Shown piece by piece: positions 13,467 to 61,190 of a stretch of 64,000 nt of DNA. The stretch's first letter is position 1. The number at the start of each line of letters is the position of its first letter. The translations under genes and the position numbers were made by a program. The DNA is taken from contig JABMPJ010000161.1 in the NCBI GenBank assembly GCA_013203785.1, forward strand, positions 10,449 to 74,448, in the 5' to 3' direction. The DNA comes from Lentisphaerota bacterium (GTDB taxonomy: Bacteria; Verrucomicrobiota; Kiritimatiellia; UBA8416; JABMPJ01). The notes beneath the pieces are model-generated. The model was given only the letters and a program-made list of their open reading frames with translations. It did not search any database and had not been told where the DNA came from.

Positions 13467-13567
13467 AGTCAGAATTCAGAAGTCAGAAGTCAGTGCCCCA
13501 TTCTTCGTGGGGTCAAAACGTCCAAGTGACTCTCATTCTGAATTCTGACTCCTGAATTCTGACTTCC
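13467..13567. repeat. compound inverted/tandem repeat: three CAGAAKT heptads, a CCCCA..TGGGG mini-hairpin and an inverted copy (TTCTGAATTCTGACTCC x2)
   Basis: GAGTCAGAATTCAGAAGTCAGAAGTCAGTG ... GTGACTCTCATTCTGAATTCTGACTCCTGAATTCTGACTTCC. A 17-nt arm is exactly complementary. It lies between the divergently arranged nusA operon and the thioredoxin-like gene. Confidence 0.5.
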
Positions 13568-13726
13568 TTGCTGGGGACACAGAAGCTTACACCATCATCT
13601 CGCGCTGCTCGCATTGACTCGCTTGGCATCGCAGACAGAGTGCTCTGGCATTTTAAGCCCGCTTCTGTCGTGACAGAGGCCGGTACGGTTGGATACTGTC
13701 AGGGCATACGAAAACTAAGGAGAGTG

Positions 13727-14311
13727 ATGATGCCCTTTACACTGCCGTTGGGAACAGAGGCGCCGGATTTCAGTCTGCCGGCCACAGATGGAAAGCGCTA
13801 CAGCCTGGCCGACTTTGCCGAGAGCGAGGTGCTGGTGATCTTCTTTACCTGCAACCATTGCCCCTATGTCATCGGCTCAGATGAGGTGACCCGGGCCACC
13901 GCCAACCGCTTTAAAGCGCAGGGCGTGGCGTTCCTCGGAATTAACTCTAATAGTATCAATACCTACGCCGAAGACAGCTTCGATCATATGGTCGCACGTA
14001 TGAAAGAGCATCACTTCCCCTGGGTATATGCCCATGACCAGTCCCAGGAAGTCGCCGTGGCCTATGGTGCCCTACGGACGCCGCACTTCTATGTCTTCGA
14101 CCGCGCACGCAAGCTGGTCTATACCGGCCGCGCCATCGACACCCCGCGCAACGGAGCGCAGGCCACAATCAACGATCTGGACAACGCGCTGGAAGACATC
14201 CTGGCCGGACGCCCGGTCCAGACCCCCTTGACCAACCCGATCGGCTGCAACGTCAAGTGGGACCGCAAGGAAGCGCACTGGATGCCTGCCGACGCCTGTG
14301 ATTTGGTGTAG
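13727..14311 (+). CDS. thioredoxin-fold protein, AhpC/TSA / TlpA-like family (CxxC: FTCNHCPYV)
   Basis: ORF 13568..14311. Preferred start is ATG 13727, preceded by AAGGAGAG RBS. Motifs include [26 protein letters not shown]. Confidence 0.7.
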
Positions 14312-14974
14312 TTACTTCCTGCGGTTTCGTTTCCTGGCCTTCGCCGCCTGCTTCCGTTTGGCCTTCGCCTTCTTGCGGCTTGCGAGGTGAGGGCCAGAGG
14401 GTACCCCGGATGACCGAAGATGGTCCCCGTCCACCACCATATCCATGATCTGTTCGTCCTCATCGAGGATATATATAGGCTTCTCGCCGTTCCATGTTCC
14501 AAAGTAGTCGGGATCCTTCTTGCCGAAATAGTCTATGCCCACCACACGGCGGAAGGTGTAGCCATGCTTCACGCCGGTGGCCACCATCTGTTCATCAACA
14601 ATGACTGTCGGGCAGGTTGTGCAGAAGAAACCGGCCGGCGCAAGCATCGCGCGAGTTGCGATATCCGTGGCATAGATGAAATTGGCCGCCCTCCGCTGCG
14701 TCGCGGACTGACAAAGGGGACAGATCGCCACGTTCCCCAGGAACTTTTTCGAGTAGCCGTGGGTGACATTTCCTTCAAAAAGCGCGAGACCATTGCGCCG
14801 GATGACCTCCTCGGCCAATGCCTTTTGTGATTCCGCCTCAAAACTGTCGAGATCAACCGTTACCATCTTCCCATTGCGAAGAATACCGGGCTCCCTGCCG
14901 ACATCGGGGGTCACCGTCTCCTTCGTTTCGTCCACGCGCCTATTCTTCTCTCTAAATCGTTGGAACAGGTTCAT
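14312..14974 (-). CDS. hypothetical protein with two CxxC pairs and a polybasic C-terminal tail (KKAKAKRKQAAKARKRNRRK)
   Basis: 220 aa. ICPLCQ and FFCTTCP suggest a zinc ribbon; the tail suggests nucleic-acid binding. No family recognised. Its stop abuts the stop of the convergent gene at 14311 with 0 nt spacer. Confidence 0.45.
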   Translation of the reverse strand: MNLFQRFREKNRRVDETKETVTPDVGREPGILRNGKMVTVDLDSFEAESQKALAEEVIRRNGLALFEGNVTHGYSKKFLGNVAICPLCQSATQRRAANFIYATDIATRAMLAPAGFFCTTCPTVIVDEQMVATGVKHGYTFRRVVGIDYFGKKDPDYFGTWNGEKPIYILDEDEQIMDMVVDGDHLRSSGVPSGPHLASRKKAKAKRKQAAKARKRNRRK

Positions 14975-14981
14975 TCTTCCC

Positions 14982-15362
14982 TCATCTTCTCAGCGCCCTC
15001 CTGTAGCGCTGCATGCCACGCCGCACCAGCCCGCACGAGAACCGCGAGGCGATGACGAGACGGCCGTCAGCGACGACCGGTCGGCAGCTGATCGGTGCAG
15101 TTGGGAGGCGACGGTACATCCCACGTGCGAGACACCAGATAACCGGATGCGGCGAACGCAGAAGTATCCGCAGACATTCCTGCTCCATCGGCAAATGGAA
15201 ACCGCTGATAACGAGAACGCCTTCGTTCCGAAACCGCTTGGCGAGGTCATAGGTTTCGAGAATCAGTTTTCCCGGGCACTTGACGGAGCAGAACCGTGCG
15301 ACCTTGGGACGATCCAAGATTCCCGCGTCTCCGATAATCTGAATGGCTGGTTTGGCTGTCAT
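14982..15362 (-). CDS. short DprA/Smf-like (SLOG superfamily) Rossmann-domain protein, possibly a truncated remnant
   Basis: 126 aa. VLVISGFHLPMEQECLRILL...PVIWCLARGMYRRLP aligns position-for-position with the DprA core VVSGLAxGIDxxAHRGAL...TIAVLGxGLDxxYP. The downstream GRLVIASRFSCG resembles GxLlSExPxG. Too short for a full DprA Rossmann domain. Confidence 0.3.
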   Translation of the reverse strand: MTAKPAIQIIGDAGILDRPKVARFCSVKCPGKLILETYDLAKRFRNEGVLVISGFHLPMEQECLRILLRSPHPVIWCLARGMYRRLPTAPISCRPVVADGRLVIASRFSCGLVRRGMQRYRRALRR

Positions 15363-15565
15363 CGCTCAGTCTCAATCACTTGGGTTATCTCGTTTTACGT
15401 AGTTCCTGTCACGACCGATGATGGCCCCATTTGCCCCTTTGTGTCACCTTTGCTGCGTGAGCCATTCGCGAGCCATTTCCATCATCACTTCTCCGTGGCA
15501 CGTTTGGCGCGTTCTTGGCACGATTCGGTCTCTTGTTGCCGGATTCGTATTCTGGTGCGTTTGGT

Positions 15566-17050
15566 TCATTTATGGTGCGTTTGAGATGCGTTTGTTTGCC
15601 CCTTATGCCCCTTCATTGCCCCTTTCGCCACTCGGTAAAAGACGCCTCTCCCTGTAGTACCGACCTTCTCTACCAGTTTCATCTCTACCAACCCGGCCAG
15701 ATCAAGGGACGCGGTTCTCTTGGCAACAGAAAATGCCCGTTGATACTCCGTATTTGTCATGCGCCCGTGTGTCTTCATCAACCCAATGGCTCGGATTTTC
15801 CGCTCATTCAGGCCCAACTCATCTATCACCGCATCAGTAAGCCAATCACGCCAAATCACTGTGACAAACCGTTCTCCCTCACCGCGGAATTCCGGTTCCG
15901 GCAGACCGGCATCGGCGCACAACTGTATCATGTCGAGTGTCCCGGTTCCGGCCCGCTCGATATAGTGCGCCAGGTAGAGGGGTTCGCAGATCAAGCGATT
16001 GCGCGGAACGGAGGGATGCGGCCCTTTCAGCATGTCTGACGTCAGATCTTCCGGCAGGCCACCCGGATTCCAGATCTCGATGCGGTTGGCGAAGACCATG
16101 ACCTGCACGCCGGACTTGGAGGCATAGTTGCGATGGGCTACGGCGTTGACGATCGCCTCGCGTACAACCCGGAAGGGTACCTCATAGCTGACATCGCTTG
16201 CAGCCGACTTGTCGCTGGGCTTGACGGAGCGGTGCAGCCGGTCCATGACGAAATCCACGGCTTTGTCCACCACGTCAAACAAGGATCCATGATAGACTTG
16301 CTGGCTGGGGATAGGCTTTGCAATGGCGGTGCCATGGAAGTGCAGACACGTCACGTCAGCCGAACGGATAAACCGCTCCGGCGCGTCATTAAAGAGCAGG
16401 ATAGCGCCCCGTGTCGGTTTGCCTTTGGCGAGCAGGTTTAGGTGGGCCAGCGCCTCTTTGCGCGAGGTGTTGGGAGCAAGTGCATAGCTTCTTTCTGCAC
16501 GAGCCTTCTCTATAAACCAACGCATCTTTTGCGTCGAAATATCTTTGAGTGTAGCGTCATGGCAGGCAACTGCATCGAAATCTTTCGCCGCCACAAACCC
16601 ATGATCCTGTAGATACTGAATCAAGCTGCCGTAGAGCAGGCGCAGCATTTCGTCCGTATTCTCAAACCGCCGTCGGACAACTTCAGCCCCCGCACGTTCG
16701 ATCAGGGCCTTCATCATTGGCTTACGAGCCTTGTCGTCGCGTCCCTTCACCAGAATCAGGCGGCGTTTGCGAAGTCGCGTCGCTTCGGCGAACTCACGCT
16801 CCGTGGGCGACTGGCCACTATCGTCCGTCCATCCGTACTCGTTTCCAAAGACGCCGACGTAGATCGCGCTGTTCTTCACTTCATCGAGGTAGACGGCATC
16901 CGCCCGCCGATCCGCAGGCGGCAAGCCCTCAAACAGAAATACCCGGAAGAACTGCCGCAACAGGTCATGCCCATGAACAAAATCGCGCATGACATACCGC
17001 TCCGCCTGAAGCTCCTTCTGCACACTGCTTATGATTAATTGATCCATCAT
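15566..17050 (-). CDS. ATP-binding protein: DUF4062-like N-terminal domain + AlbA_2 (Schlafen-like divergent AAA) + HATPase_c_4 + C-terminal winged HTH
   Basis: 494 aa. The N-terminal block (LIISSVQKELQAER...SAIYVGVFGNEYG...SPTEREF) matches my recollection of DUF4062. AlbA_2 block ~190-300. HATPase_c_4 block VVREAIVNAVAHRNYASKSGVQVMVFANRIEIWNPGGLP. The wHTH lies in the last ~70 aa. The C-terminal low-complexity tail is encoded by short tandem DNA repeats. Confidence 0.7.
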   Translation of the reverse strand: MMDQLIISSVQKELQAERYVMRDFVHGHDLLRQFFRVFLFEGLPPADRRADAVYLDEVKNSAIYVGVFGNEYGWTDDSGQSPTEREFAEATRLRKRRLILVKGRDDKARKPMMKALIERAGAEVVRRRFENTDEMLRLLYGSLIQYLQDHGFVAAKDFDAVACHDATLKDISTQKMRWFIEKARAERSYALAPNTSRKEALAHLNLLAKGKPTRGAILLFNDAPERFIRSADVTCLHFHGTAIAKPIPSQQVYHGSLFDVVDKAVDFVMDRLHRSVKPSDKSAASDVSYEVPFRVVREAIVNAVAHRNYASKSGVQVMVFANRIEIWNPGGLPEDLTSDMLKGPHPSVPRNRLICEPLYLAHYIERAGTGTLDMIQLCADAGLPEPEFRGEGERFVTVIWRDWLTDAVIDELGLNERKIRAIGLMKTHGRMTNTEYQRAFSVAKRTASLDLAGLVEMKLVEKVGTTGRGVFYRVAKGAMKGHKGQTNASQTHHK

Positions 17051-17097
17051 CTCGCCATTGCGGCCATTACGAGACCTTGAGATTGTAAGTGGGAAAT

Positions 17098-18963
17098 CTA
17101 CAGCAGATGTTCCGCCTTGTAGTCATCATTGATGCAGTACCGGGGCTTGCCTTCCATGCGATGGATGAAGCCCGCTTTTTCCATACCGTTGAAAGCGCTT
17201 CTGGCCTTGCGAAGAAAACCATCGAACTTCTTGATGTTGCCGACTGCGACATGACTCTGGAACCACAGGGCGAGGCTTACTTGTCGTGCGCTGGGATAAG
17301 GGGTCTTCGAGTATCGGTTGAATCTGTAGACGATACTCAACAGATCTTTGCTGAAATCATGAAGCTGGTCGAAGGCTGCGCCATAAGCATCCCTCAACTC
17401 GACGATATGATCTCGCTTTAGCAGGAGACGATCGGCAATGTAAACCGGATGCAACGATGTGCTGCTCTGATGCTTGGAGATCAACCCCTTGTTTTCAAGA
17501 AACGAAATCTCGTTGAAGTGGTTGTTGTCGGGCGTGAGTAGAATTGTGTAGCGCAACTGCGCGTTTGCCCATTCTGACTTGATCAGGTAGGCAAGGATAC
17601 GCTTCTGCTGTTCGTTTAACGTTCGACCTTCCAGACGGTCCTCGATGTAGCGGTCGAAAGACAGAAACAGCGCTTCCATCCGGTCGTCCAAAAGTCGACC
17701 GGTGTTGAGAAACAGCCCGATGTCCGACTCCGAGTAGAAGCGATAGTACGGCAGATCAACGAGATTCTGTAAGCACAAGTCCACCATCGTCGCCATTCCT
17801 ATGCCCTTGCCTTCCCACTTGTTGAAGACCATGAGTACCATGGCCAGCTTGGGATTTCGCGGACGTGCCTCCGGTACAATACGCCTGACAGGAACGGAGT
17901 GGTCCGGCTCTTCGATAACCAGGTGTTTTCTGAAAGCGCCCGGATTTCGGATCTCTATATGGCTTCCCGGCTTGATCGTGATCGTAACATATTTGTCGAT
18001 AGAGTAATCACGATGCGCCAAGGCGTTGTTGACGGTCTCGCGAATCAAGGCCTGTGGATACTGGGGGGTTGCCGAACCGCCTTCATCCAGGCTTACCCCC
18101 ACCGGGATGTTTCTCATGACAAATGCGTTTGCCGCTTCCATGACGGGAAGTATGTTGCCGCTGATGACCTGCTTATCCTGAACAACGACCTGCGGGGCTT
18201 CCACATAACCATGAACGCGACAGCGAAACTGTAGATGGTCTTCGGGATGCTGACCGCAGACGAGCATGCCCAACGTCGTGACCTGGCCGTCTTTAACGAA
18301 GGCCTTCCGGCTGAGAAAGGACATAGCGGAATGGACATCCGGCTTCATGGTTTCCACTTTGGTCTGGCGATTGAGCAGCTGGATATACTCGTTGAGTTGA
18401 TCGATATCCAAGTCATTTGGTGTTGCGTTGGCAACCGGCATCAGTTCACGAGCTTGCAGGACATCTTCTTTGTATTCCTCTTGGCTCGATATTTCCGCTT
18501 CCGACAGCTTGTGATCACCTGTGAGAACACGGCGATAACCAACGCCATTCAAGAAACAGAACTTCTGATCGGCTGGAAGCTCATCCACGAAAACTACCGC
18601 CACCTGACCATCCATGAACGAGCGCAATTCCGGGTTCGGAAAAAGCGATTTCAGATCAAGCTTCCGTCCCTGACGATCCGTGAAGACCGCACCGAATTCC
18701 TTCAACTTCGGTTCCGCCTCGGAGCGGTAGCCTGTGAAGATGTAGCGGCTGGTTCCGGCTGACTGCTCTTCCTTTACTCCCAGCAACAGCACTCCACCAC
18801 GCGTATTGAGAAACGCATTGACGGTCTCATGTATGCTACGCCATTCCCCGCCGGTCGCGGGAACCGGTTTGATTTCGATTCCGTCGCTCTCCAACTCTTC
18901 AAACTCGCCGCCACGAATCAGCGGCTCCAGTTTTTCCAGCAATTGGTCTATGGTCTTGCGCAT
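17098..18963 (-). CDS. ATP-binding protein with two AlbA_2 (Schlafen-like) domains + HATPase_c_4 + long C-terminal domain
   Basis: 621 aa. First AlbA_2 at residues ~1-110 (GGEWRSIHETVNAFLNTRGGVLLLGV). Second AlbA_2 ~200-290. HATPase_c_4 motif LIRETVNNALAHRDYSIDKYVTITIKPGSHIEIRNPGAF. Paralogous to the upstream gene. Confidence 0.7.
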   Translation of the reverse strand: MRKTIDQLLEKLEPLIRGGEFEELESDGIEIKPVPATGGEWRSIHETVNAFLNTRGGVLLLGVKEEQSAGTSRYIFTGYRSEAEPKLKEFGAVFTDRQGRKLDLKSLFPNPELRSFMDGQVAVVFVDELPADQKFCFLNGVGYRRVLTGDHKLSEAEISSQEEYKEDVLQARELMPVANATPNDLDIDQLNEYIQLLNRQTKVETMKPDVHSAMSFLSRKAFVKDGQVTTLGMLVCGQHPEDHLQFRCRVHGYVEAPQVVVQDKQVISGNILPVMEAANAFVMRNIPVGVSLDEGGSATPQYPQALIRETVNNALAHRDYSIDKYVTITIKPGSHIEIRNPGAFRKHLVIEEPDHSVPVRRIVPEARPRNPKLAMVLMVFNKWEGKGIGMATMVDLCLQNLVDLPYYRFYSESDIGLFLNTGRLLDDRMEALFLSFDRYIEDRLEGRTLNEQQKRILAYLIKSEWANAQLRYTILLTPDNNHFNEISFLENKGLISKHQSSTSLHPVYIADRLLLKRDHIVELRDAYGAAFDQLHDFSKDLLSIVYRFNRYSKTPYPSARQVSLALWFQSHVAVGNIKKFDGFLRKARSAFNGMEKAGFIHRMEGKPRYCINDDYKAEHLL

Positions 18964-19054
18964 TGTTCACCTCGCAATCTGTCTCTTCTTCACTCCGACC
19001 CAGCGCCCCGCCCATGCGGTATTTGATGTCGTAATTGATGATGAAATCCACGCC

Positions 19055-34340: not shown

Positions 34341-34691
34341 TCACAGTATGGCGAGCACACTCTCAGGGGGACGACCCACGGCAACACGCCCCTTGTAGGT
34401 AACGATGGGGCGTTCGATCAGTATCGGATTCGAGATCATGAGCGCCATCCATTCGCCATCGGAGCGCACGTCTGACGGGGAGAGGCCAAGCTCCGCGAAG
34501 CGGGCCTCCTTCGTCCGCATGATCTGTAGGGGGGTGACGCCCAGCCCGCGACAAATTTCAGCCAACTCGTCGGCCGAAGGCGGGGTCTCCAGGTAAAAGA
34601 CCGTCTCGAGCTCAACACCCCGCTCCTCCAGGAGCGCGAGGGTCTGACGACTCTTGCTGCAGCGGGGGTTATGAAAGATGGCGTTACGCAT
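34341..34691 (-). CDS. arsC: ArsC/Spx-family thioredoxin-fold reductase (arsenate reductase-like)
   Basis: ORF to 34709; preferred ATG at 34691 (GGAG 9 nt upstream). [38 protein letters not shown] motif. Overlaps the nfo 3' end. Confidence 0.75.
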
Positions 34692-35535
34692 TGGCCGGCT
34701 CCATTCCATGCAGGAGCTGGATCTCCTGGGGCCATATCGTCATGTCCACCGTTTCAAGGACGAGCGGCATATGGTCGAAGCGGCTGTCGCGCATGATATA
34801 CTCGAACGCCACCAAGGGGATGGAGCCCTCGCCCAAGCTGTGGTGCCGGTCCTTACGACTATCAAAGGGCGTCTTGCTGTCGTTGAGATGCATACCGCGC
34901 AAGTATTTGAACCCTACGACGTCTTCAAACTCCTGGAAGGTCTGGCGGCAGAGCTCCTCGCTGCGGAGATCGTACCCGGCCGAGAAGGCGTGACAGGTGT
35001 CGAGACAGACGCCGATGCGGGATTTGTCGTCTACCTGATCGATGATGGTGGCCAGATGCTCAAAACGGTGCCCCATATTGGAGCCTTGGCCCGCCGTATT
35101 CTCGAGCACGCAGGTAACCCCTTCGGTTACCTCCAGGGATCGGTTGATGCCTTCCGCAATCAGAGCCAGACAGGCCTCCTCCGAAATTTCGCGCAGGTGG
35201 CTACCGGGATGCATATTGAGCAGTCTGAGCCCAAGCTGCTGGCAGCGGTGCATCTCGTCGGTGAAGGCGTCCTGCGACCGCTTGCGCTTCCCCCGATCCG
35301 CATTGCCGAGGTTGATCAGGAAGCTGTCGTGCGGCAACACGTAGTCGGGCGAGAAGCCGTTTTCCTCGAGCGCCGTACGGAAGCGGATGATGTCATCCTC
35401 CGTATAGTCCGCCGCGACCCACTGACGCTGGTTTTTAGTAAACAGTGCGAAGGCGGTCGCGCCGATGGCCTTGGCGTTGACGGGGGCGTTGTAGACGCCG
35501 CCTTGGGCGGATACGTGTGCACCAACAAATTTCAT
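34684..35535 (-). CDS. nfo: endonuclease IV (deoxyribonuclease IV, AP endonuclease family 2)
   Basis: 283 aa. [13 protein letters not shown]...[10 protein letters not shown]...MHPGSH...VLENTAGQG...[13 protein letters not shown]. Confidence 0.92.
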
Positions 35536-35558
35536 GACGGCTCGCTCCTGGGATAACG

Positions 35559-36521
35559 TTATATGACGGCGGCAATATCGCGCGTGATGCGCGGTGACCG
35601 AGAGAGAGCGCCTTCAAGCAGCGAAAGCATGCAGAGCTTGCTCAACGACCGTGCGATGCCGCCGGATCGTTCGTGAAGCAGGGCCAGGGCATCGTCATCA
35701 AAGAGCGACTCAGAGCGGCCTGCGACGGAAAGGCGATAACTGACATAGTGCGCCACCTCCTCAAGCGTGAGTGGCTGCAGTTGGCACTGCAGGTACATGC
35801 GGTTGCGCAGGGAGTCGTAGCTGGGATTCTCCAGCCGCTTGGCAAAGCGGGACTCGCCAAAGAGCAGGCAGGTCACCAGCTTGCACTCCGGAATCTCAAT
35901 ATTGCTCACCGTCCGCAGGATGTGCAGGCTGTCGGAGGTGAGGAAGTGACATTCGTCGATGACGATGACGAGCCGCCGCCCCTCCTGATAGAGATCGATT
36001 ACGTGGTTGGTCAGGAGACGGACGAGATCCTGCGTGCGCACGATACCGGTCGGCAGGGCGATATTCAACTCCGAGAGAATCGTGCGCAACAACGCCGTCT
36101 TGCTCATCCCCGGGGTGACCAGGACCAACACGGCCTGATGCGTCTCCTGATCGATATTCTGGAGCAGAATCTGTGAGACGAGCGTTTTGCCCGCCCCGCT
36201 CTCGCCGGTCACCATGCCGAGTGAGACATTGTAGCGGACCGCCATGAGCATGCGTGTGATGACATCGCGATGACTCTCGATCCGGAAGAAATAGGCCGGG
36301 TTGATGCTATCGGCAAAAGGATTGTCCCGCATGCCATAGAACCCCACAAAATCGGCTTCGCGCGGTATGTCGAAGTGGACTTGTGACTGTGAGATATCTG
36401 ACTGAGGTGTGGCCTCGACGAGCGCCATAAGCGGATTATCATGCTGCCCGGCCGTGTCGGCGGCCGCATCGTCTTCATCTATCTGGGGCGCGATCAGCGC
36501 TTCAAGCGTTTGCGTATTCAT
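35559..36521 (-). CDS. ExeA/GspA-like AAA+ ATPase (AAA_22/AAA_16 type), cytoplasmic
   Basis: 320 aa. [12 protein letters not shown] Walker [12 protein letters not shown] Walker B, N-terminal [18 protein letters not shown] typical of ExeA-like proteins. No peptidoglycan-binding C-terminal domain. Confidence 0.65.
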
Positions 36522-37395
36522 TGTGAGTTCCCTCTCTTAGATTTGAGCGAAAGCGGGGGTGATGATTCAGCGTGGTCCTCAGCCCCGTAACCAGCATGCC
36601 CATCCGGCTCCAAGGCTCTGCGGCCGTCTGGCGATCCGGCTTCTTGATCAGGCAGGGGATCATCTTATCGATGCGACGGGCACTGTCTGCGCCGAGTCCG
36701 CTCAGCATCAGCGGACGGCGCGCCTGGTTGGCATCGTGCAGCGCGCGGTCCCGGTAAACCGCGCCCAGAGTATTCGGCGTGAACTTGAGAAAGCGTTCGG
36801 TGCAACCGATGATTCGACCACACACGCCAGCCACCTCGTCCTCGTTCTCAACTAGGTTAGCCAACAGATGGATGCTTCCACTCACCTTGGCTTCGCGGGC
36901 CACCTTGATGACCCCGTAAGCATCCAGGCTGGAGGCCAGGTCGGGCGTGACAACGACCACGATCTCATCGGCGATTCGAAGATACTCCATCACGACACGC
37001 GAAATGCCCGCCCCGGTATCAACCACCACAGCGTCGAAACCACCCATCAGGCGATCCAACTCCCCTGTGACCCGTGCCAAGTCCTCTGCCCCCAGGTCAG
37101 CCAGCTCGGTCAGCCCGGAGGGGCCGCAAAGCATCTGGAGCCCATTCGGGCCCTCCATGAGCGCCTCCTCGCCGGACAGACGCCCGTGCAGGACATCCAG
37201 AACCGTGTGCTTGGGGTTGATGCCAGCGAATATATGGGCGTTGGCCATGCCCATATCGGCGTCAAAAAGGAGTGTTTTCAGGCCTCGCCGGACCATGGCC
37301 AACGCGAGATTGACGGCCAGCGTGGTCTTGCCCACGCCACCTTTTCCACTGGTCACGGAAATGACGCGTGTAGTTGTTCTGGACGGCAGACTCAA
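36502..37395 (-). CDS. ParA/MinD/FlhG-family P-loop ATPase
   Basis: 297 aa. Deviant Walker A SGKGGVGKTT. DADMGMAN and VVDTGAGI motifs. Overlaps the downstream ExeA-like gene by 20 nt. Confidence 0.75.
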   Translation of the reverse strand: MSLPSRTTTRVISVTSGKGGVGKTTLAVNLALAMVRRGLKTLLFDADMGMANAHIFAGINPKHTVLDVLHGRLSGEEALMEGPNGLQMLCGPSGLTELADLGAEDLARVTGELDRLMGGFDAVVVDTGAGISRVVMEYLRIADEIVVVVTPDLASSLDAYGVIKVAREAKVSGSIHLLANLVENEDEVAGVCGRIIGCTERFLKFTPNTLGAVYRDRALHDANQARRPLMLSGLGADSARRIDKMIPCLIKKPDRQTAAEPWSRMGMLVTGLRTTLNHHPRFRSNLREGTHNEYANA

Positions 37396-37482
37396 ATGAC
37401 TTATACTCTATATTGTTCCTGAGCTTCTGGTTGACCACACTATGTGGTGGCTACCGCATGGAAGTCAAGAAATAGGTGAACC

Positions 37483-37794
37483 GTGGTTTCTCTGAAACAA
37501 CGCGATGACGCGTCCTCTGACGCGCCTGACACTGCCGACGGGGGGGGTGAGGCGCGGGTTCTGGCAGTCGAGATTAAGTTTCTGTGCCCGACCTGCGACT
37601 CAAAGCTGCGCACCGAGGTGCAGCATGCAGGCCGCGAAGTCCCGTGCTCGGTCTGTCGCAGCCTGCTGACCGTACCCTCACCCTTTGCGGGAGTGAGCTA
37701 CCCACCCCCTGGCAGCACTCGCCCCCCTGAACGCGATGAGTTGGCATCGGTGCTCACGACGGACGAGGTCGCCTTTCTTACAGGGAATATGTGA
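37483..37794 (+). CDS. zinc-ribbon protein (MJ0042-type finger; CPTC...CSVC)
   Basis: 103 aa, GTG start. FLCPTCDSKLRTEVQHAGREVPCSVCRSLLTVP. Start site uncertain. Confidence 0.45.
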   Translation: MVSLKQRDDASSDAPDTADGGGEARVLAVEIKFLCPTCDSKLRTEVQHAGREVPCSVCRSLLTVPSPFAGVSYPPPGSTRPPERDELASVLTTDEVAFLTGNM

Positions 37795-38357
37795 TGTCGG
37801 GTGTAAGCGGAACGACCAAGATGGATTGCCCGGCATGCGGCGTAACGATCACCGTGCCTATGGGCCCCAGCAACCGCACGTTCCAATGCCCGCGCTGCCT
37901 GAATGTCGTTGATCCCGTTGAGGCACCACCAGTTACGGAGGCACCAGCGGTAGTGGTGCCACCCCCACGCCAGGTTGAGCTCGCCCTCCCCGCACCGCCC
38001 CCGCAGGCTGCGGCCCCGCTGAAGCTCTCACCTCCCCCCCCAAAGCTGGAACCATTGCGGGAGACCCAGGCACTCGGGCAGGATCAGGGGCGGGAGCTGG
38101 ATAAAGCGCTGCGCGAACTCTCGCTGGAACGGGACAGCCTTCTGCGCCAAGTGGAAGACGCTCAAACAACCATCCGAGAGTTTACGCCCATTATCCAGCG
38201 CGTGGGTGAGTTGGAGTCCCGTATCTGGGAGCTGGGCACCACCTACCTCAAATGCCTGCAGCATCTCGGCGAGCTCGAAGCCGAAAACGAACGCCTCAGA
38301 CGCGCCCGCGCGCCCAAAGTCGATGCCCTCCCGGTGCGCTCGCGCGCGACGGCCTGA
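37791..38357 (+). CDS. zinc-ribbon - Pro-rich linker - coiled-coil protein
   Basis: 188 aa. MDCPACGVTITVP...FQCPRCLNVV zinc ribbon. PPVTEAPAVVVPPPR...PPPPK linker. C-terminal heptad-rich ELDKALRELSLERDSLLRQVEDAQTT...LEAENERLRR. ATGTGATG overlap with the upstream gene. Confidence 0.5.
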   Translation: MMSGVSGTTKMDCPACGVTITVPMGPSNRTFQCPRCLNVVDPVEAPPVTEAPAVVVPPPRQVELALPAPPPQAAAPLKLSPPPPKLEPLRETQALGQDQGRELDKALRELSLERDSLLRQVEDAQTTIREFTPIIQRVGELESRIWELGTTYLKCLQHLGELEAENERLRRARAPKVDALPVRSRATA

Positions 38358-38485
38358 GGGTCGCCGCATCCCGATTCCGTGACTCCATCTCCCTCTACAG
38401 CCCACAGCCTGGTCGTCTGCCATGGCCGAAGCTTAGGGAGTATCTGTGAGTTGTCATGGACCAGTGGATTCGAAGACATCACCGT

Positions 38486-38556
38486 TCTTCGTAATCGTAA
38501 TCTTGCTCGTAATCGTAATCCGAGTACGATTGCGGGCAGGATTACGATTACGGAAA
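38486..38556. repeat. ~71-bp palindromic CGTAATC-heptad element (copy B)
   Basis: TTCTTCGTAATCGTAATCTTGCTCGTAATCGTAATCCG|AGTACGATTGCGGGCAGGATTACGATTACGGAAAA. Arm mismatches are T/C transitions, which would still pair as G-U in RNA. About 85% identical to copy A. Confidence 0.8.
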
Positions 38557-38806
38557 ATACCAGTACAACAAACCGGAGAAGTGCCGTGCAGACTCCTCAT
38601 CCCCCAATTCCGCTTGAGCTTCATCTCGCTTCTGTGATAGGCCTGTCCGGTCGGTGAAGATCGACACTGTCTCCGAGCCATCCCCCCCTAAGGCTAGAGT
38701 GCTACGGGTTGATAGGCCGGTATAGGGCGTGGGCGGAAACGACCACGCCTCCCGGGGGGTGGCATACAATAGGTGTGCCATACCACCCATTGGAAAGGAG
38801 ACGGCA

Positions 38807-40021
38807 ATGATGACACCACTTGAGGCGTGGCAGAGCATTGGTCTGCACACGCAGCCGCTACCTGCAACCCATCGATCCCTCGCGTCGGCCACGGGATATG
38901 TCCTGTCCGAAGCGGTGGTCGCAGATCGCGACGTACCACCCGTCAACCGCGCCGCCATGGACGGCTACGCCGTGCGGGCCGAGGACCTCGCGTCCTGCCC
39001 TGCCACACTCACCCTTATAGGCGAAGTGGCCGCCGGATCCGATGCCACTCCCCTCGTCAGTCAGGGCGAATGCGTGGCGATCTACACCGGTGCCAATGTC
39101 CCCCCAGGTGCCGATAGCGTGATCATGGTTGAAGAGACGGAAGCGGCGGGCACAACGATCCGCTTTCTCAAACCGCCCCGCTCCGGGCAGCATATCTTCC
39201 GCCAGGGCGAGAATGCCCAGCGGGGCGAGATCCTATTGGAAGCCGGGGTCGTTCTGGGCGCAGCAGAAGTCGGCGTATGCGCCGCGGTGGGTGTGGATCG
39301 CCCCTCTGTTTTCGGACGGCCGCGCGTGGCGATTCTCTCTACCGGGGCCGAACTGTTGGATGCCAGCGAGGAGGTCGAAGCCCACCAGCTGCGTAACTCG
39401 AACGGGCCCATGCTCGTAGCAGGCCTAACGGCTGCCGGATTCGAGGTGACCCACTGCCGCGCCGTGGATGACGATGAGGAGCGGATCGTTCAAGGCATAC
39501 GCGATCTGCTCTCGACATGCGACTGCCTCATTCTGACCGGAGGTGTTTCCGTCGGCAAGTATGACCTGGTCCCACAGGCCATTCAACAGGCCGGGGGCAC
39601 GGTACATTTCCACGGCGTCGCGATCAAACCGGGAAAGCCCCAACTCTTTGCGACCACCGACGCGGGCAAGATCCTTTATGGTCTGCCCGGCAACCCGCTC
39701 AGCTCGATGGTCGGTTTACAGGAGTTTATTCTGCCCGCCCTGCGCCGCATGGCCGGCACCCCGGTCGAGCGCTGCCGGCCAATGCTGAAGGTCCACCTCG
39801 GAGCAGACATCGGCGGCAAGACCGGCCGACTGCGCCACAACATGGTCTCACTGGTGTCGGACGAGACGTGGGGCATGGTGGCTATGCCGGTCACCCACAG
39901 CGGCTCGGCCGATCTGATTGCCGGGGCCCGCGCCGATGGCACCGTCATCATACCGGCAGACGTCGCCAGTATACCGGCTGGCAAGATGGTGCATTTTTGT
40001 CCGTGGAGAACGATCGGATGA
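38807..40021 (+). CDS. moeA: molybdopterin molybdenumtransferase MoeA
   Basis: ORF from 38729; preferred ATG 38807 after AAAGGAG RBS. MoeA N-terminal, MoCF-binding GGVSVGKYD and C-terminal domains. Confidence 0.9.
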   Translation: MMTPLEAWQSIGLHTQPLPATHRSLASATGYVLSEAVVADRDVPPVNRAAMDGYAVRAEDLASCPATLTLIGEVAAGSDATPLVSQGECVAIYTGANVPPGADSVIMVEETEAAGTTIRFLKPPRSGQHIFRQGENAQRGEILLEAGVVLGAAEVGVCAAVGVDRPSVFGRPRVAILSTGAELLDASEEVEAHQLRNSNGPMLVAGLTAAGFEVTHCRAVDDDEERIVQGIRDLLSTCDCLILTGGVSVGKYDLVPQAIQQAGGTVHFHGVAIKPGKPQLFATTDAGKILYGLPGNPLSSMVGLQEFILPALRRMAGTPVERCRPMLKVHLGADIGGKTGRLRHNMVSLVSDETWGMVAMPVTHSGSADLIAGARADGTVIIPADVASIPAGKMVHFCPWRTIG

Positions 40022-43827: not shown

Positions 43828-44886
43828 TCATATGTTTGACCTCTTCTCGCCTTTGCTCAGTCGTAGCGCCACCTTGTCGAAATCCGACTCCTTGTGGTCT
43901 TCTGCGACAATACATCGACGATTGAACGTCTCGTACTCGCCCTCGGCTCGCGCAACGGCCATCTCATGGGATATTTTTCCCGCGTGCGTCAGGATGTCTC
44001 GTTCATTCAAGTTTAGAAATGCATCCAGCTTGGCACTCCAGTCCGTCATGTGCATCGGGACACGCCGCATCGCTCGCCCCTCGGCAAAAATCAGGTATTG
44101 CTCGACCAGGTTGTTCAGCGCCAGAAGTTCCTCCTCGGCCAAGTAGTTCTTTGCGATCGTGACGTCTGCCTTACGCAGCTTGTTGCCGCGCCAATTTGTC
44201 AGCCCCATGTTCTTCTTCTCGGCATCGACACGGTCGTGGATGATTTCGGCAGCCGTCATGCCGGTTATGGCCCAGTGCATCTTGTTTTGCACGGTCCTGA
44301 AGAAGTCGATGCTGATTTCCTGCGTGGGATCATAGTCGACGCTCGTGGCGTAAATATCAGTGATCTTCTGGTAGAAGCGACGTTCAGACGTCCGTATATC
44401 CTGAATTCGCCGCAGGAGCTCTTCAAAGTAGTCGAACGGCTGGTCTGGATTCTTGAGTCGCTCATCGTCCAAAAGGAATCCCTTGACCAGATACTCACCG
44501 AGCCGTTGCGTGGCCCACTGGCGGAAACGCGTAGCCACATGGGATTTCACGCGATAACCCACGGAGATGATCATATCCAGATTGTAGTAATCCAATTCCC
44601 GCTGAACATTCCTTGCCCCCTCCTGGCGAACCGTTAAGGATTTCTTAACAGTTGCCTCCGGAGCCAACTCACCCTCCTCATAGACATTCCGGATGTGCAT
44701 GCTGATGTTAGGAACCGTGGTCTGAAACAGCTCTGCCATAAGTTGCTGCGTCAGCCAGACGGTCTCGTTCTCCAGGCGCACCTCGATACGGGGTGTACCG
44801 TCCGCATCCTGGTAGACCAGCACCTCGCCGTGGGATTCGGCCTTCTCGGGGCTGACAGAATCATATTTTGCTGGCTTGTTGCTCAC
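43828..44886 (-). CDS. rhuM: RhuM-family virulence/Fic-DOC-associated protein
   Basis: 352 aa. EVLVYQDADGTPRIEVRLENETVWLTQQLMAELFQ...YYNLDMIISVGYRVKSHVATRFRQWATQRL is the canonical RhuM N-terminal block. Confidence 0.8.
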   Translation of the reverse strand: MSNKPAKYDSVSPEKAESHGEVLVYQDADGTPRIEVRLENETVWLTQQLMAELFQTTVPNISMHIRNVYEEGELAPEATVKKSLTVRQEGARNVQRELDYYNLDMIISVGYRVKSHVATRFRQWATQRLGEYLVKGFLLDDERLKNPDQPFDYFEELLRRIQDIRTSERRFYQKITDIYATSVDYDPTQEISIDFFRTVQNKMHWAITGMTAAEIIHDRVDAEKKNMGLTNWRGNKLRKADVTIAKNYLAEEELLALNNLVEQYLIFAEGRAMRRVPMHMTDWSAKLDAFLNLNERDILTHAGKISHEMAVARAEGEYETFNRRCIVAEDHKESDFDKVALRLSKGEKRSNI

Positions 44887-59684: not shown

Positions 59685-61190
59685 CTAGGCGGAACGAATT
59701 GCCGCCTCGATGCGCGTCACCTCCATATCAGACAGGAACTTGAAATGGCTGGTGCGCCTGTTGGCCGACAGGTGTCCATTGTTTTGCAGGCAGAATCGAA
59801 TGAACAGGTCGATCTGTCTGTCCGGCATGTCTACAACAGCCTGAATGGCCTGCTTGGTATGGTCGTAGTTGGCCAGGAATGCCAGTTCTTCTGCCAGTTC
59901 CGTATCGATGGTCTGTTCGATGAACCGGAATAGCGCCTCCGCTTGCGGCGTCATGTCGGTGTACTTGTACCAGATTGCCGTATCGTTCTGCACCGTCATC
60001 CGCCCCATCTCATCCAGTGAGTATTCCACAAGCATCATCAGAGGCTTGGAGAAGGCCTCCAGTGATGCGTCGTAGTCTGCTATGTTCTGCAGCATCGATG
60101 CAGATACGGGGAAAATGAAGCCAGCCGGTGTGAATCCGTGACGGGCAAGTATGTTGTGGATCAGGAAACGGTGAATACGTCCGTTCCCATCCTCGAACGG
60201 ATGCAGGAAAACGAATCCGTACGCGATGGCGGCGGCATGAATGACGGAGAACACCTCTCCTGTCTCCATCCTCTCGTGGGATGCGAGCAGCCCTTCCATA
60301 AGTTCAGTTACGTCCTGGGGTCGCGGACCGGCGAAATGGACCTTCTCCTTTTGCCAGGCTACGGTCTCGCCAACATAGTTCTGACTACCACGATAATCCG
60401 TATCTTGGAAGCGGGGGTCCACAGTACGGTTCTGTAGATCGATCAGGCGCCCCTTCTCGCAGAAATCCTCTTTTTCGGCCAAGTGGAGCAGAGAAACGAA
60501 GCGTTCCGTTCGGGTCGAGGTCGGCTTGATGTGCTCGATCTCGAAGGACGATTTCGTTTCCTTCTTGTAGAGGTAGCTCATGGCCCGTTTCAGTAATTCA
60601 GGGGGATACTTGGCAACAATATCCCGGCACCGTTCAGGAAGATTTGCTTCTTCGAAGGATCGCAATACTGCCGTACGGCGAATTGTGGGACAGAACCTGG
60701 CGTCCCCGAGCAGGTTGTCATTGATACGCTGGCGACGCACCCGACGGGGTTCGGCCATCGTGTAGTATTCGTCTGGATCGAGCAGATCGATGTATCCCCC
60801 GGTCCCAAGGTCAGCCAGGGGAAGCTCCACACCGGTGAGCATTTCGTATAGGAACCACACTCGACGGGTATATTTCCCCCTCGGCGCAGATGCGACATAC
60901 TGTTGGATTTCATCCTGAGGAGCCACCTTGAACACGCTGACAAGGATGGCCAGATTTGTCCCATCGTACTTGAGCGCAAATTGCAGATGGTCACCGAGCG
61001 TGTCCCCGGGCCAATACCGGGCTGGGTAGACTTCTTCGGTTACGCCTGCGGTCGTATCGACTCGATGTGTGTTTCCTGTGGCAACAAGAGATCGATGCCA
61101 GTTCGGTAGCACGTCTAACCCGAATTTCTCGATCAGTGCGCCGTACCCAGTCACCTTCATCCCCGTCGCATCTAAAGAGTGCTCATTCAT
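59685..61190 (-). CDS. large Fic-family protein
   Basis: 501 aa. HPFEDGNGRIHRFLIHNILARHGF Fic motif, preceded by a long N-terminal domain. Confidence 0.8.
   Translation of the reverse strand: MNEHSLDATGMKVTGYGALIEKFGLDVLPNWHRSLVATGNTHRVDTTAGVTEEVYPARYWPGDTLGDHLQFALKYDGTNLAILVSVFKVAPQDEIQQYVASAPRGKYTRRVWFLYEMLTGVELPLADLGTGGYIDLLDPDEYYTMAEPRRVRRQRINDNLLGDARFCPTIRRTAVLRSFEEANLPERCRDIVAKYPPELLKRAMSYLYKKETKSSFEIEHIKPTSTRTERFVSLLHLAEKEDFCEKGRLIDLQNRTVDPRFQDTDYRGSQNYVGETVAWQKEKVHFAGPRPQDVTELMEGLLASHERMETGEVFSVIHAAAIAYGFVFLHPFEDGNGRIHRFLIHNILARHGFTPAGFIFPVSASMLQNIADYDASLEAFSKPLMMLVEYSLDEMGRMTVQNDTAIWYKYTDMTPQAEALFRFIEQTIDTELAEELAFLANYDHTKQAIQAVVDMPDRQIDLFIRFCLQNNGHLSANRRTSHFKFLSDMEVTRIEAAIRSA

Follow-up and report, generated by a model that had tools for sequence, protein, structure and literature searches.

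What do a ParA/MinD-like ATPase, an ExeA-like AAA+ ATPase and two small zinc-ribbon proteins have in common? This question is raised by four genes at positions 35559-38357 of a 64,000-nucleotide stretch of contig JABMPJ010000161.1 from a Lentisphaerota bacterium (assembly GCA_013203785.1), which we refer to as the window. A sequence-only reading of this DNA had described them as a candidate positioning-scaffold module and had not recognised the four genes as a known unit. We found that the two ATPase genes form an invariant pair, to which a divergent operon of two zinc-ribbon genes, here named ZnR1 and ZnR2, is added in one bacterial branch. As part of what we regard as the best, still tentative, explanation, the four genes would make up one self-contained cytoplasmic module encoded in two divergent, co-regulated operons.

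The layout is as the sequence-only reading had described it, with four open reading frames (ORFs), two overlaps and an 87-nt divergent spacer of lower GC content (43.7% versus 60-64% in the four genes). The two ATPase genes on the minus strand share 20 nt. ZnR1 and ZnR2 share 4 nt (GTGA), and an alternative ATG at 37794 results in a classic TGATG overlap.

A profile of the AAA+ protein was used to fetch 66 loci from contigs representing one genome per species. These loci were searched with the window proteins, all of their ORFs were clustered, and the surrounding ±10 kb were compared in 64 of them, while gene order was scored in the 57 species-level loci whose upstream sequence extended over 2.6 kb or more. 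In 57 of 57 loci, the ParA-like gene is located directly upstream of the ExeA-like gene and on the same strand. In 51 loci the ParA-like gene has one or more zinc-ribbon genes upstream of it in divergent orientation, and both are present in 44 according to a strict pattern test. No other family is conserved within ±10 kb, and none occurs in more than 16 of the 64 loci. Genes for type II secretion systems (T2SS), Tad, flagella, gspB, secretins, pili or exopolysaccharides (EPS) are not conserved in this range; clustering of the ATPases with canonical T2SS/Tad loci, which would have counted as a refutation of the earlier reading, was not seen. The carriers comprise dozens of species of Verrucomicrobiota (Chthoniobacterales, Verrucomicrobiaceae) and Lentisphaerae. 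Of the six loci that do not have zinc-ribbon genes, four belong to Sumerlaeota, one (L056) to a metagenome-assembled genome (MAG) of Lentisphaerae and one (L054) to a MAG of an uncultured member of the Verrucomicrobiota. A chance adjacency of four unrelated genes, in favor of which nothing can be said beyond the absence of functional data, is refuted by an order and orientation that recur in 44-51 of the 57 loci, in two phyla and with a shared operator in the spacer.

Distant AAA+ relatives from unknown lineages (44% and 37% identity) are still encoded directly after a ParA-like gene within unrelated flanks; one relative at 36% identity is not located next to such a gene. Because distant relatives keep the pair in unrelated contexts, we consider the two ATPases the invariant core. 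This core is also conserved in Sumerlaeota and other lineages that have no zinc-ribbon genes; the Verrucomicrobia/Lentisphaerae branch has added the zinc-ribbon operon to it. The proposed four-gene unit was therefore borne out with respect to co-occurrence in other genomes, but its conserved part is the two-ATPase pair.

Full-text literature searches, like the sequence-only reading, did not recognise the unit: they returned no paper on a FlhG-like ATPase, ancestrally fused to a MerR-type helix-turn-helix (HTH) domain, that is obligatorily paired with a short ExeA-like AAA+ protein, none on a divergent zinc-ribbon operon with an EIDAL-like motif, and none on the shared palindrome described below. 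A review of cell division in the Planctomycetes-Verrucomicrobia-Chlamydiae (PVC) group contains nothing on MinD or ParA. Each of the four proteins belongs to a known superfamily, and the module is not categorically new.

The two ATPases

The 297-aa ATPase contains the deviant Walker A motif SGKGGVGKT (KGGVGKT) and intact catalytic motifs, and it matches the Pfam families AAA_31, CbiA and ParA (E 2e-16 to 4e-14). The TTG at 37395 is the sole start codon that retains both strand β1 and the P-loop. The best solved relatives in a PDB sequence search were FleN (131.6 bits, about 45% identity over residues 8-229) and FlhG (110 bits), followed by MinD with at most 87 bits and Soj with 39 bits. Neither the curated MinD model TIGR01968 (94.5 bits, cut-off 212.9) nor the curated NCBIfam model ParA_partition NF041546 (61 bits, cut-off 180) is reached. 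As for a minC/minE context, the neighbors of the gene are the ExeA-like gene and the zinc-ribbon genes, and a ParB-like neighbor was detected neither by Pfam scan nor in the ±10 kb comparison. Judged by its sequence, the protein is FleN/FlhG-like and not a generic ParA. Of the earlier assignment to a ParA/MinD/FlhG type, the deviant Walker A motif and the FlhG affinity are retained and the generic ParA label is not.

The likeness to FleN/FlhG extends to the switch region DADxGxAN and to the pairing with an AAA+ ATPase, as FleN is paired with FleQ. However, FleQ is a sigma-54 activator, whereas the partner found here is of the ExeA/AAA_22 type. The FlhF-activating DQAxxLR helix, an N-terminal feature of FlhG (PMC12826062), is absent, the window ATPase starting only 8 residues before strand β1 (LSLPSRTTTRVISVTSGKGG). 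Neither flhF nor flagellar genes are conserved within ±10 kb of the 64 loci or present among the annotated window genes. FlhG/FleN proteins also have an amphipathic helix at the C-terminus that targets the membrane. In the family studied here, conservation does not extend to the last 60 residues; the C-terminal segments WSRMGMLVTGLRTTL of the window protein and FADLMGALKR of the Sumerlaeota proteins could be amphipathic.

Relatives of this ATPase from Sumerlaeota, Lentisphaerae and more distant lineages carry a MerR_1 HTH at the N-terminus (Pfam E 6.2e-12 and 8.1e-6), a domain that FlhG does not have. We built a local hidden Markov model (HMM) from the intact MerR HTH N-terminus and scored it across the loci. 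The model gave more than 120 bits in every locus that has no zinc-ribbon genes and 23-91 bits in the zinc-ribbon loci, with the exception of L010 (133 bits). Helix 1 of the HTH is typically lost in the Chthoniobacter ATPases. In the window ATPase the HTH is absent, the model matching nothing beyond the Walker A region. As indirect evidence, this decay of the HTH where zinc-ribbon proteins occur points to a functional link between them, perhaps with overlapping roles in targeting. By their N-terminal DNA-binding HTH, the relatives resemble type Ia ParA proteins, but the domain is of the MerR type and missing from the window ATPase.

We also observed that 44 of 60 ParA-like proteins (L003-L066) end in -AA, 34 of these in -AAA; the window protein ends in ...YANA (36502-36540). 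This ending resembles a C-terminal degron of the ssrA/ClpXP type and suggests that the protein may be subject to regulated turnover.

The second ATPase, a protein of 320 aa, matches Pfam AAA_22 (E 5.8e-21), has intact Walker A (GESGAGKT) and Walker B (VIDECH) motifs and shows the ExeA-type N-terminal motif FYGxxxNPFxD. It is 100% identical to an NCBI protein of a "Lentisphaerae bacterium". The model TIGR03015 is matched with an E value of 4.5e-42 and 144.3 bits, which is below the curated cut-off of 324.5. Identity to Aeromonas ExeA and to the ATPases of the XrtA/PEP-CTERM group is about 30% over residues 58-305. As the sequence-only reading had stated, a peptidoglycan-binding domain is missing: only AAA-type Pfam domains were matched, with neither PG_binding nor transmembrane (TM) domains, while the long paralogue in L064 matches PG_binding_1 with 1.5e-11. 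More than 370 homologues share 50-65% identity with it, and the catalytic residues are invariant. In an exhaustive search of 1.84 billion cluster representatives, the hits fell into three tiers, consisting of a single one at 391 bits, about 35 short proteins (270-330 aa) at 150-290 bits, and a plateau near 130-145 bits made up of long canonical ExeA proteins. Because of these tiers, we assign the protein to a distinct short subfamily. A PDB sequence search gave no match at E <= 0.01.

An AlphaFold2 (AF2) model of this protein has a mean pLDDT of 82.7, with residues 1-53 disordered. The disordered tail, which is specific for the subfamily, contains two small conserved islands (MNxQ..E and D.L..L), a pattern typical of docking peptides. 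The nearest structures found with Foldseek were Orc1/Cdc6, ORC, TnsC and MuB (E 7e-11 to 1e-9, TM-score 0.56-0.65), all of which oligomerise on double-stranded DNA. The modeled fold shares with Orc1/Cdc6, TnsC and MuB two helices between β2 and β3, at the site of the initiator-specific motif. In contrast to these proteins, a winged-helix domain and a transposase or origin context are missing, and identity is just 12-22%.

Given this kinship, the ATPases could be envelope-assembly factors acting in trans: the short ExeA-like ATPase would serve a secretin, pilus or exopolysaccharide machine encoded elsewhere, like ExeA/GspA or MshM, and the FlhG-like ATPase would place this machine, like TadZ or BcsQ. 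The AAA_22 core, the N-terminal motif (FGLxxxPF in ExeA/GspA, MshM and the XrtA/PEP-CTERM ATPase) and the match to TIGR03015 are in line with such a role, and Verrucomicrobia and Lentisphaerae encode many pseudopilin-type proteins. However, the window protein is soluble and has no peptidoglycan-binding domain, its score remains far below the TIGR03015 cut-off, and it has an obligatory FlhG-like neighbor. Over the 64 loci, neither gspB/exeB, T2SS or MSHA genes nor exosortase or EPS neighbors are conserved near the ExeA-like gene. The annotated window genes likewise include no secretion, pilus or flagellar genes, in agreement with the earlier description. The MerR DNA-binding domain on the partner ATPase of relatives is hard to reconcile with an envelope function. 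On balance, we consider such a function unlikely, if worth keeping in mind.

Two unrelated loci contain canonical long ExeA proteins directly next to the pair. In L064 (11110-13653), a canonical long ExeA with TM and PG_binding_1 domains follows the pair and is itself followed by the only GspB-like gene of all loci (N-terminus MSVILEALQKAR). In L075 (3071-4738), a long ExeA with a TM segment and a long coiled coil precedes it. This proximity would fit an envelope role of the pair; the neighbors could have arisen by tandem duplication, or the pair could be functionally connected with ExeA proteins of the envelope.

A mobile-element or anti-phage defense cassette, in which the pair of P-loop NTPases would act together with zinc-ribbon sensors, was considered as well. 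Defense systems frequently contain zinc ribbons as well as NTPases of the AAA_22, STAND-like and ParA-like kinds, and weak nSTAND matches were obtained. However, none of the four proteins had a meaningful match in PADLOC (best E 4.7e-4, P-loop regions only), which led us to reject a defense role, and viral contigs and plasmids contained no close relatives. Identities of 50-65% across orders, the fixed arrangement and the varying chromosomal contexts point to vertical inheritance, which also counts against defense, as does the housekeeping context of the window (pnp, truB, infB, nusA, dnaG, nfo). We regard this explanation as largely refuted and very improbable.

The zinc-ribbon proteins and the divergent spacer

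Both zinc-ribbon proteins carry the pattern CxxC-x16-CxxC. ZnR1, whose GTG start codon is preceded by AGGTG at a distance of 5 nt, consists of one 24-residue ribbon (CPTC-x16-CSVC), a Pro-rich linker and the C-terminal sequence LTTDEVAFLT. Two such ribbons, set about 59 residues apart, are the norm in this family; the window copy keeps only the second. In 46 of 47 members, the motif L[ST]x[ED]E[IVL][AED]FL[ST] is found at the C-terminal end behind a variable Pro/Ala linker. It occurs only once in all six reading frames of the window. This motif (LSxEEIxFL) resembles the EIDAL peptide LSQxEIDALL, and its invariant Glu corresponds to E9 of FliM. EIDAL, which is N-terminal in FliM and FliY, is reportedly necessary and sufficient for binding of FlhG (bioRxiv 10.1101/2022.04.21.489128; PMC12826062). 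Since the neighboring ATPase is FlhG-like, we propose that ZnR1 may dock on it in an EIDAL-style manner, with the difference that the peptide is located at the C-terminus of a zinc-ribbon protein instead of the N-terminus of a C-ring protein.

As the sequence-only reading had it, a Pro-rich linker (31% Pro) in ZnR2 connects the N-terminal ribbon (CPAC-x16-CPRC) to a C-terminal coiled coil, a region that shows heptad periodicity. All members of the family have the N-terminal ribbon, and the four Cys and their CxxC-x16-CxxC spacing are invariant in 25 of 25. In the window, L010 and L015, the ribbon is followed by a long coiled coil. In Verrucomicrobia, the coiled coil of ZnR2 is shorter and is accompanied by an α/β domain of about 90 aa, which the window protein does not have. 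The AF2 model of such a homologue shows a four-stranded ribbon, two long helices and the α/β domain, for which there was no Pfam match and no significant Foldseek neighbor (best E 0.07). Taken together with the missing HTH and the single ribbon of ZnR1, the window copy is a reduced variant of the module. A profile search with ZnR2 recovered at least 14 proteins, the candidate stage being swamped by low-complexity words. The homologues in the Verrucomicrobia loci L003 (5901-8480) and L005 (6600-8573) are 650-770 aa long, with a long extra C-terminal region beyond the α/β domain.

The ribbons had been labeled as MJ0042-type. This family assignment is weakly supported: window ZnR1 and ZnR2 do not match Zn_ribbon_4, Zn_ribbon_5 or TIGR02098 at E <= 0.01 in Pfam or NCBIfam, whereas of the 25 members of the ZnR2 family 13 match PF13717 (best E 1.2e-5) and 9 match PF13719. 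Beyond that, the matches of both proteins and of their homologues in the two databases amounted to generic zinc-ribbon and coiled-coil noise. Compared by sequence, ZitP and GltJ (MJ0042-type, Zn_ribbon_4) are similar in their small CxxC...CxxC ribbons, flexible Pro-rich linkers and peptide motifs; they differ from the window proteins in their TM, GYF and DUF3426 domains and, in the case of GltJ, in a ribbon spacing of x19 instead of x16. The ribbons of ZitP and GltJ are protein-protein interaction modules of polarity factors, and in GltJ the ribbon acts on an NTPase switch by way of a linker peptide and so regulates it (PMC11135422).

The spacer between the two operons contains the palindrome ACCACA-cta-TGTGGT, a perfect one and a candidate operator, at distances of 39 nt to the start codon of the ATPase and 35 nt to that of ZnR1. 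Within the window it has one match at no more than one mismatch, compared to 0.08 expected by chance. With 0-1 mismatch, it is also present in the equivalent spacer of 14 Chthoniobacter-type loci, where it is embedded in a conserved block of about 45 nt; elsewhere in the 1.07 Mb of locus sequence it has two matches. Other loci show different palindromes at the same position. Consensus matches to sigma-70-like hexamers were found on both strands, and the palindrome overlaps the -10-like hexamer of the minus-strand match. A search of positions 35000-39000 against Rfam revealed no family in the spacer. Conservation of the palindrome across two phyla is further evidence of co-regulation of both operons. 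We rejected an operator of the ATPase's own MerR HTH as the sole explanation for this palindrome, since the HTH is missing from the window ATPase and the palindrome from the HTH-intact loci that have no zinc-ribbon genes.

The promoter architecture raises the possibility of a purely transcriptional module, similar to the antiactivator pair FleN-FleQ, in which the MerR-type ATPase would act as a regulator and, jointly with the AAA+ protein, control the divergent zinc-ribbon genes and perhaps a regulon. The zinc-ribbon proteins would then be the output and not partners. The MerR_1 HTH of relatives, the conserved palindrome overlapping a -10-like hexamer and the precedent of FleN (PMC8528422) argue in this direction. 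However, the HTH has been lost in the window and in many Chthoniobacterales copies, where the ATPase itself, its AAA+ partner and the palindrome nevertheless persist. This palindrome is missing from HTH-intact loci without zinc-ribbon genes. Moreover, no domain for sigma-54 interaction or DNA binding was detected in the AAA+ partner by Pfam, and the near-invariant ZnR1 motif points to a binding partner. A purely transcriptional role is improbable on this evidence.

A possible switch-and-adaptor mechanism

Based on the gene content, the family relationships and the analogies described above, we tentatively propose that a FlhG-type switch gates or positions its AAA+ partner through zinc-ribbon adaptors. 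The core would consist of two nucleotide switches, the FlhG/FleN-type MinD-family ATPase and the short, soluble ExeA-family AAA+ protein. Binding of FleN to the AAA+ domain of FleQ is established (PMC8528422). By analogy, the ATP-bound FlhG-like dimer would directly engage the AAA+ partner and thereby set when and where it oligomerises or turns over ATP. ZnR1 would dock on the FlhG-like ATPase with its C-terminal helix motif LSxEEIxFLS, as EIDAL of FliM/FliY does on FlhG, while ZnR2 would dimerise through its coiled coil and serve as a scaffold or tether. In relatives, the ATPase may be tethered to DNA by its own MerR HTH. The zinc-ribbon proteins probably took over targeting, because the HTH decays in their lineages and is gone in the window. 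Given that relatives carry a MerR HTH, and given the fold predicted for the AAA+ protein, the surface in question is probably DNA or the nucleoid. A single regulator could set both operons by way of the spacer palindrome. The earlier proposal of a positioning-scaffold function would be compatible with this mechanism; the EIDAL-like motif beside a FlhG-like ATPase, the shared palindrome and the correlation between zinc-ribbon genes and HTH decay lend it indirect support.

With ParABS, McdAB and PomXYZ, the module shares a ParA/MinD-fold ATPase encoded next to small adaptor or coiled-coil scaffold proteins. It differs from these systems by an AAA+ ATPase as the invariant partner; neither ParB/parS nor a basic N-terminal ATPase-stimulating peptide was identified.

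Several observations weigh against the proposed mechanism. The ATPase has no DQAxxLR helix and no flagellar genes nearby. Canonical ExeA works on secretin assembly and not on DNA, and the membrane-bound ExeA proteins beside the pair in L064 and L075, in the former together with a GspB-like gene, hint at an envelope role. The Orc/TnsC-like fold of the AF2 model is probably a general property of the ExeA/AAA_22 family and hence only a lead. A fusion of MinD and ExeA domains was not found among 10 long relatives, which have only longer tails or tandem AAA_22 domains. The palindrome is retained in the window, the ATPase of which has no HTH. The ZnR1 motif agrees with EIDAL at about 6 of 10 positions, with A replaced by F, and in so short a motif this similarity could be due to chance. 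Finally, the sequence data directly show the gene content, the conserved arrangement, the family assignments, the ZnR1 motif, the palindrome and the HTH decay, whereas the protein-protein contacts within the module, its association with DNA or the nucleoid and the cellular process that it would serve are inferred.

A more far-reaching interpretation, which we consider an unlikely but attractive one, is that the MerR-HTH-bearing FlhG-like ATPase and the tail-bearing short ExeA-like protein represent an undescribed DNA-associated machine of two ATPases. Here, a MinD-type switch tethered to a site or to the nucleoid would load, position or disassemble an oligomer with Orc/TnsC fold, and in the Verrucomicrobia/Lentisphaerae branch targeting would have passed from the HTH to two zinc-ribbon adaptors, one of them with an EIDAL-like docking peptide. 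The proteins concerned span Sumerlaeota, Lentisphaerota, Verrucomicrobiota and further uncultured lineages. If true, recognition of EIDAL-kind peptides by FlhG-type ATPases would also occur outside flagellar assembly.

ParA/MinD-type ATPases organise chromosomes, division sites, flagella, pili and organelles. To our knowledge, every new set of ParA/MinD partners has to date brought to light another logic of positioning or of a checkpoint, and we know of no function assigned to soluble members of the ExeA family. The module consistently pairs a MinD-type switch with an ExeA-family AAA+ protein in at least three phyla that are poorly studied in cell biology. It offers testable handles in the form of a 10-residue docking motif, a 15-bp operator and a natural series of HTH-intact, HTH-decayed and HTH-less ATPases.

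Gene calls and neighboring genes

The coordinates of the module are listed in Table 1. Two of the four proteins are too short in public gene calls: the ATPase is begun at an internal GTG inside the P-loop, which results in 277 aa and the loss of half of the P-loop with a cut through the Walker A motif, and ZnR2 is begun past its zinc ribbon (134 aa). Conservation within the families backs the longer ORFs in both cases. Domain searches on databases would miss the zinc ribbon of ZnR2 because of this truncation, and the shortened calls may partly explain why the unit has gone unnoticed.

Table 1. Coordinates of the module within the window.
Feature	Position	Strand	Description
ExeA-family AAA+ ATPase gene	35559-36521	-	320 aa, short, soluble
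FlhG/FleN-like MinD-family ATPase gene	36502-37395	-	297 aa
Divergent promoter spacer	37396-37482		87 nt, 43.7% GC
Palindrome ACCACA-cta-TGTGGT (candidate operator)	37434-37448		perfect palindrome, midway between both start codons
ZnR1 gene	37483-37794	+	103 aa, one zinc ribbon
ZnR2 gene	37791-38357	+	188 aa; 187 aa with ATG at 37794

The genes flanking the module are unrelated to it. On the ATPase side, nfo (endonuclease IV, 34684-35535, minus strand) starts 23 nt past the stop codon of the ExeA-like gene and may be co-transcribed with it in the window; it is conserved as a neighbor in no other locus fetched. On the other side, a molybdenum cofactor (Moco) riboswitch (Rfam RF01055, 38659-38816, plus strand; 60.9 bits versus a gathering score of 36, E 2.3e-13) heads a separate operon of moeA, moaA and a MOT1-type molybdate transporter gene. 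Because this riboswitch opens a separate operon downstream, the zinc-ribbon operon comprises just two genes. The listed moeA start at 38729 falls inside the riboswitch, and the true start therefore lies further downstream. The rest of the window consists of the housekeeping genes named above (pnp, truB, infB, nusA, dnaG) and a molybdoenzyme/cytochrome cluster.

Three regions of lower GC content were seen elsewhere in the window. Positions 13500-19000 (GC 0.51-0.58 versus about 0.60) encode a protein with DUF4062 and HATPase_c_4 domains (15566-17050) and a 621-aa protein that has no Pfam match (17098-18963); this stretch may be an acquired island or contain defense-type genes. A RhuM-family virulence-type protein (43828-44886, minus strand; Pfam E 2.5e-112) is encoded inside a GC dip (0.54), and a Fic/DOC-domain protein (59685-61190, minus strand; E 2.8e-13) inside another lower-GC stretch. 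Genes of these two families are typical of mobile or accessory DNA.

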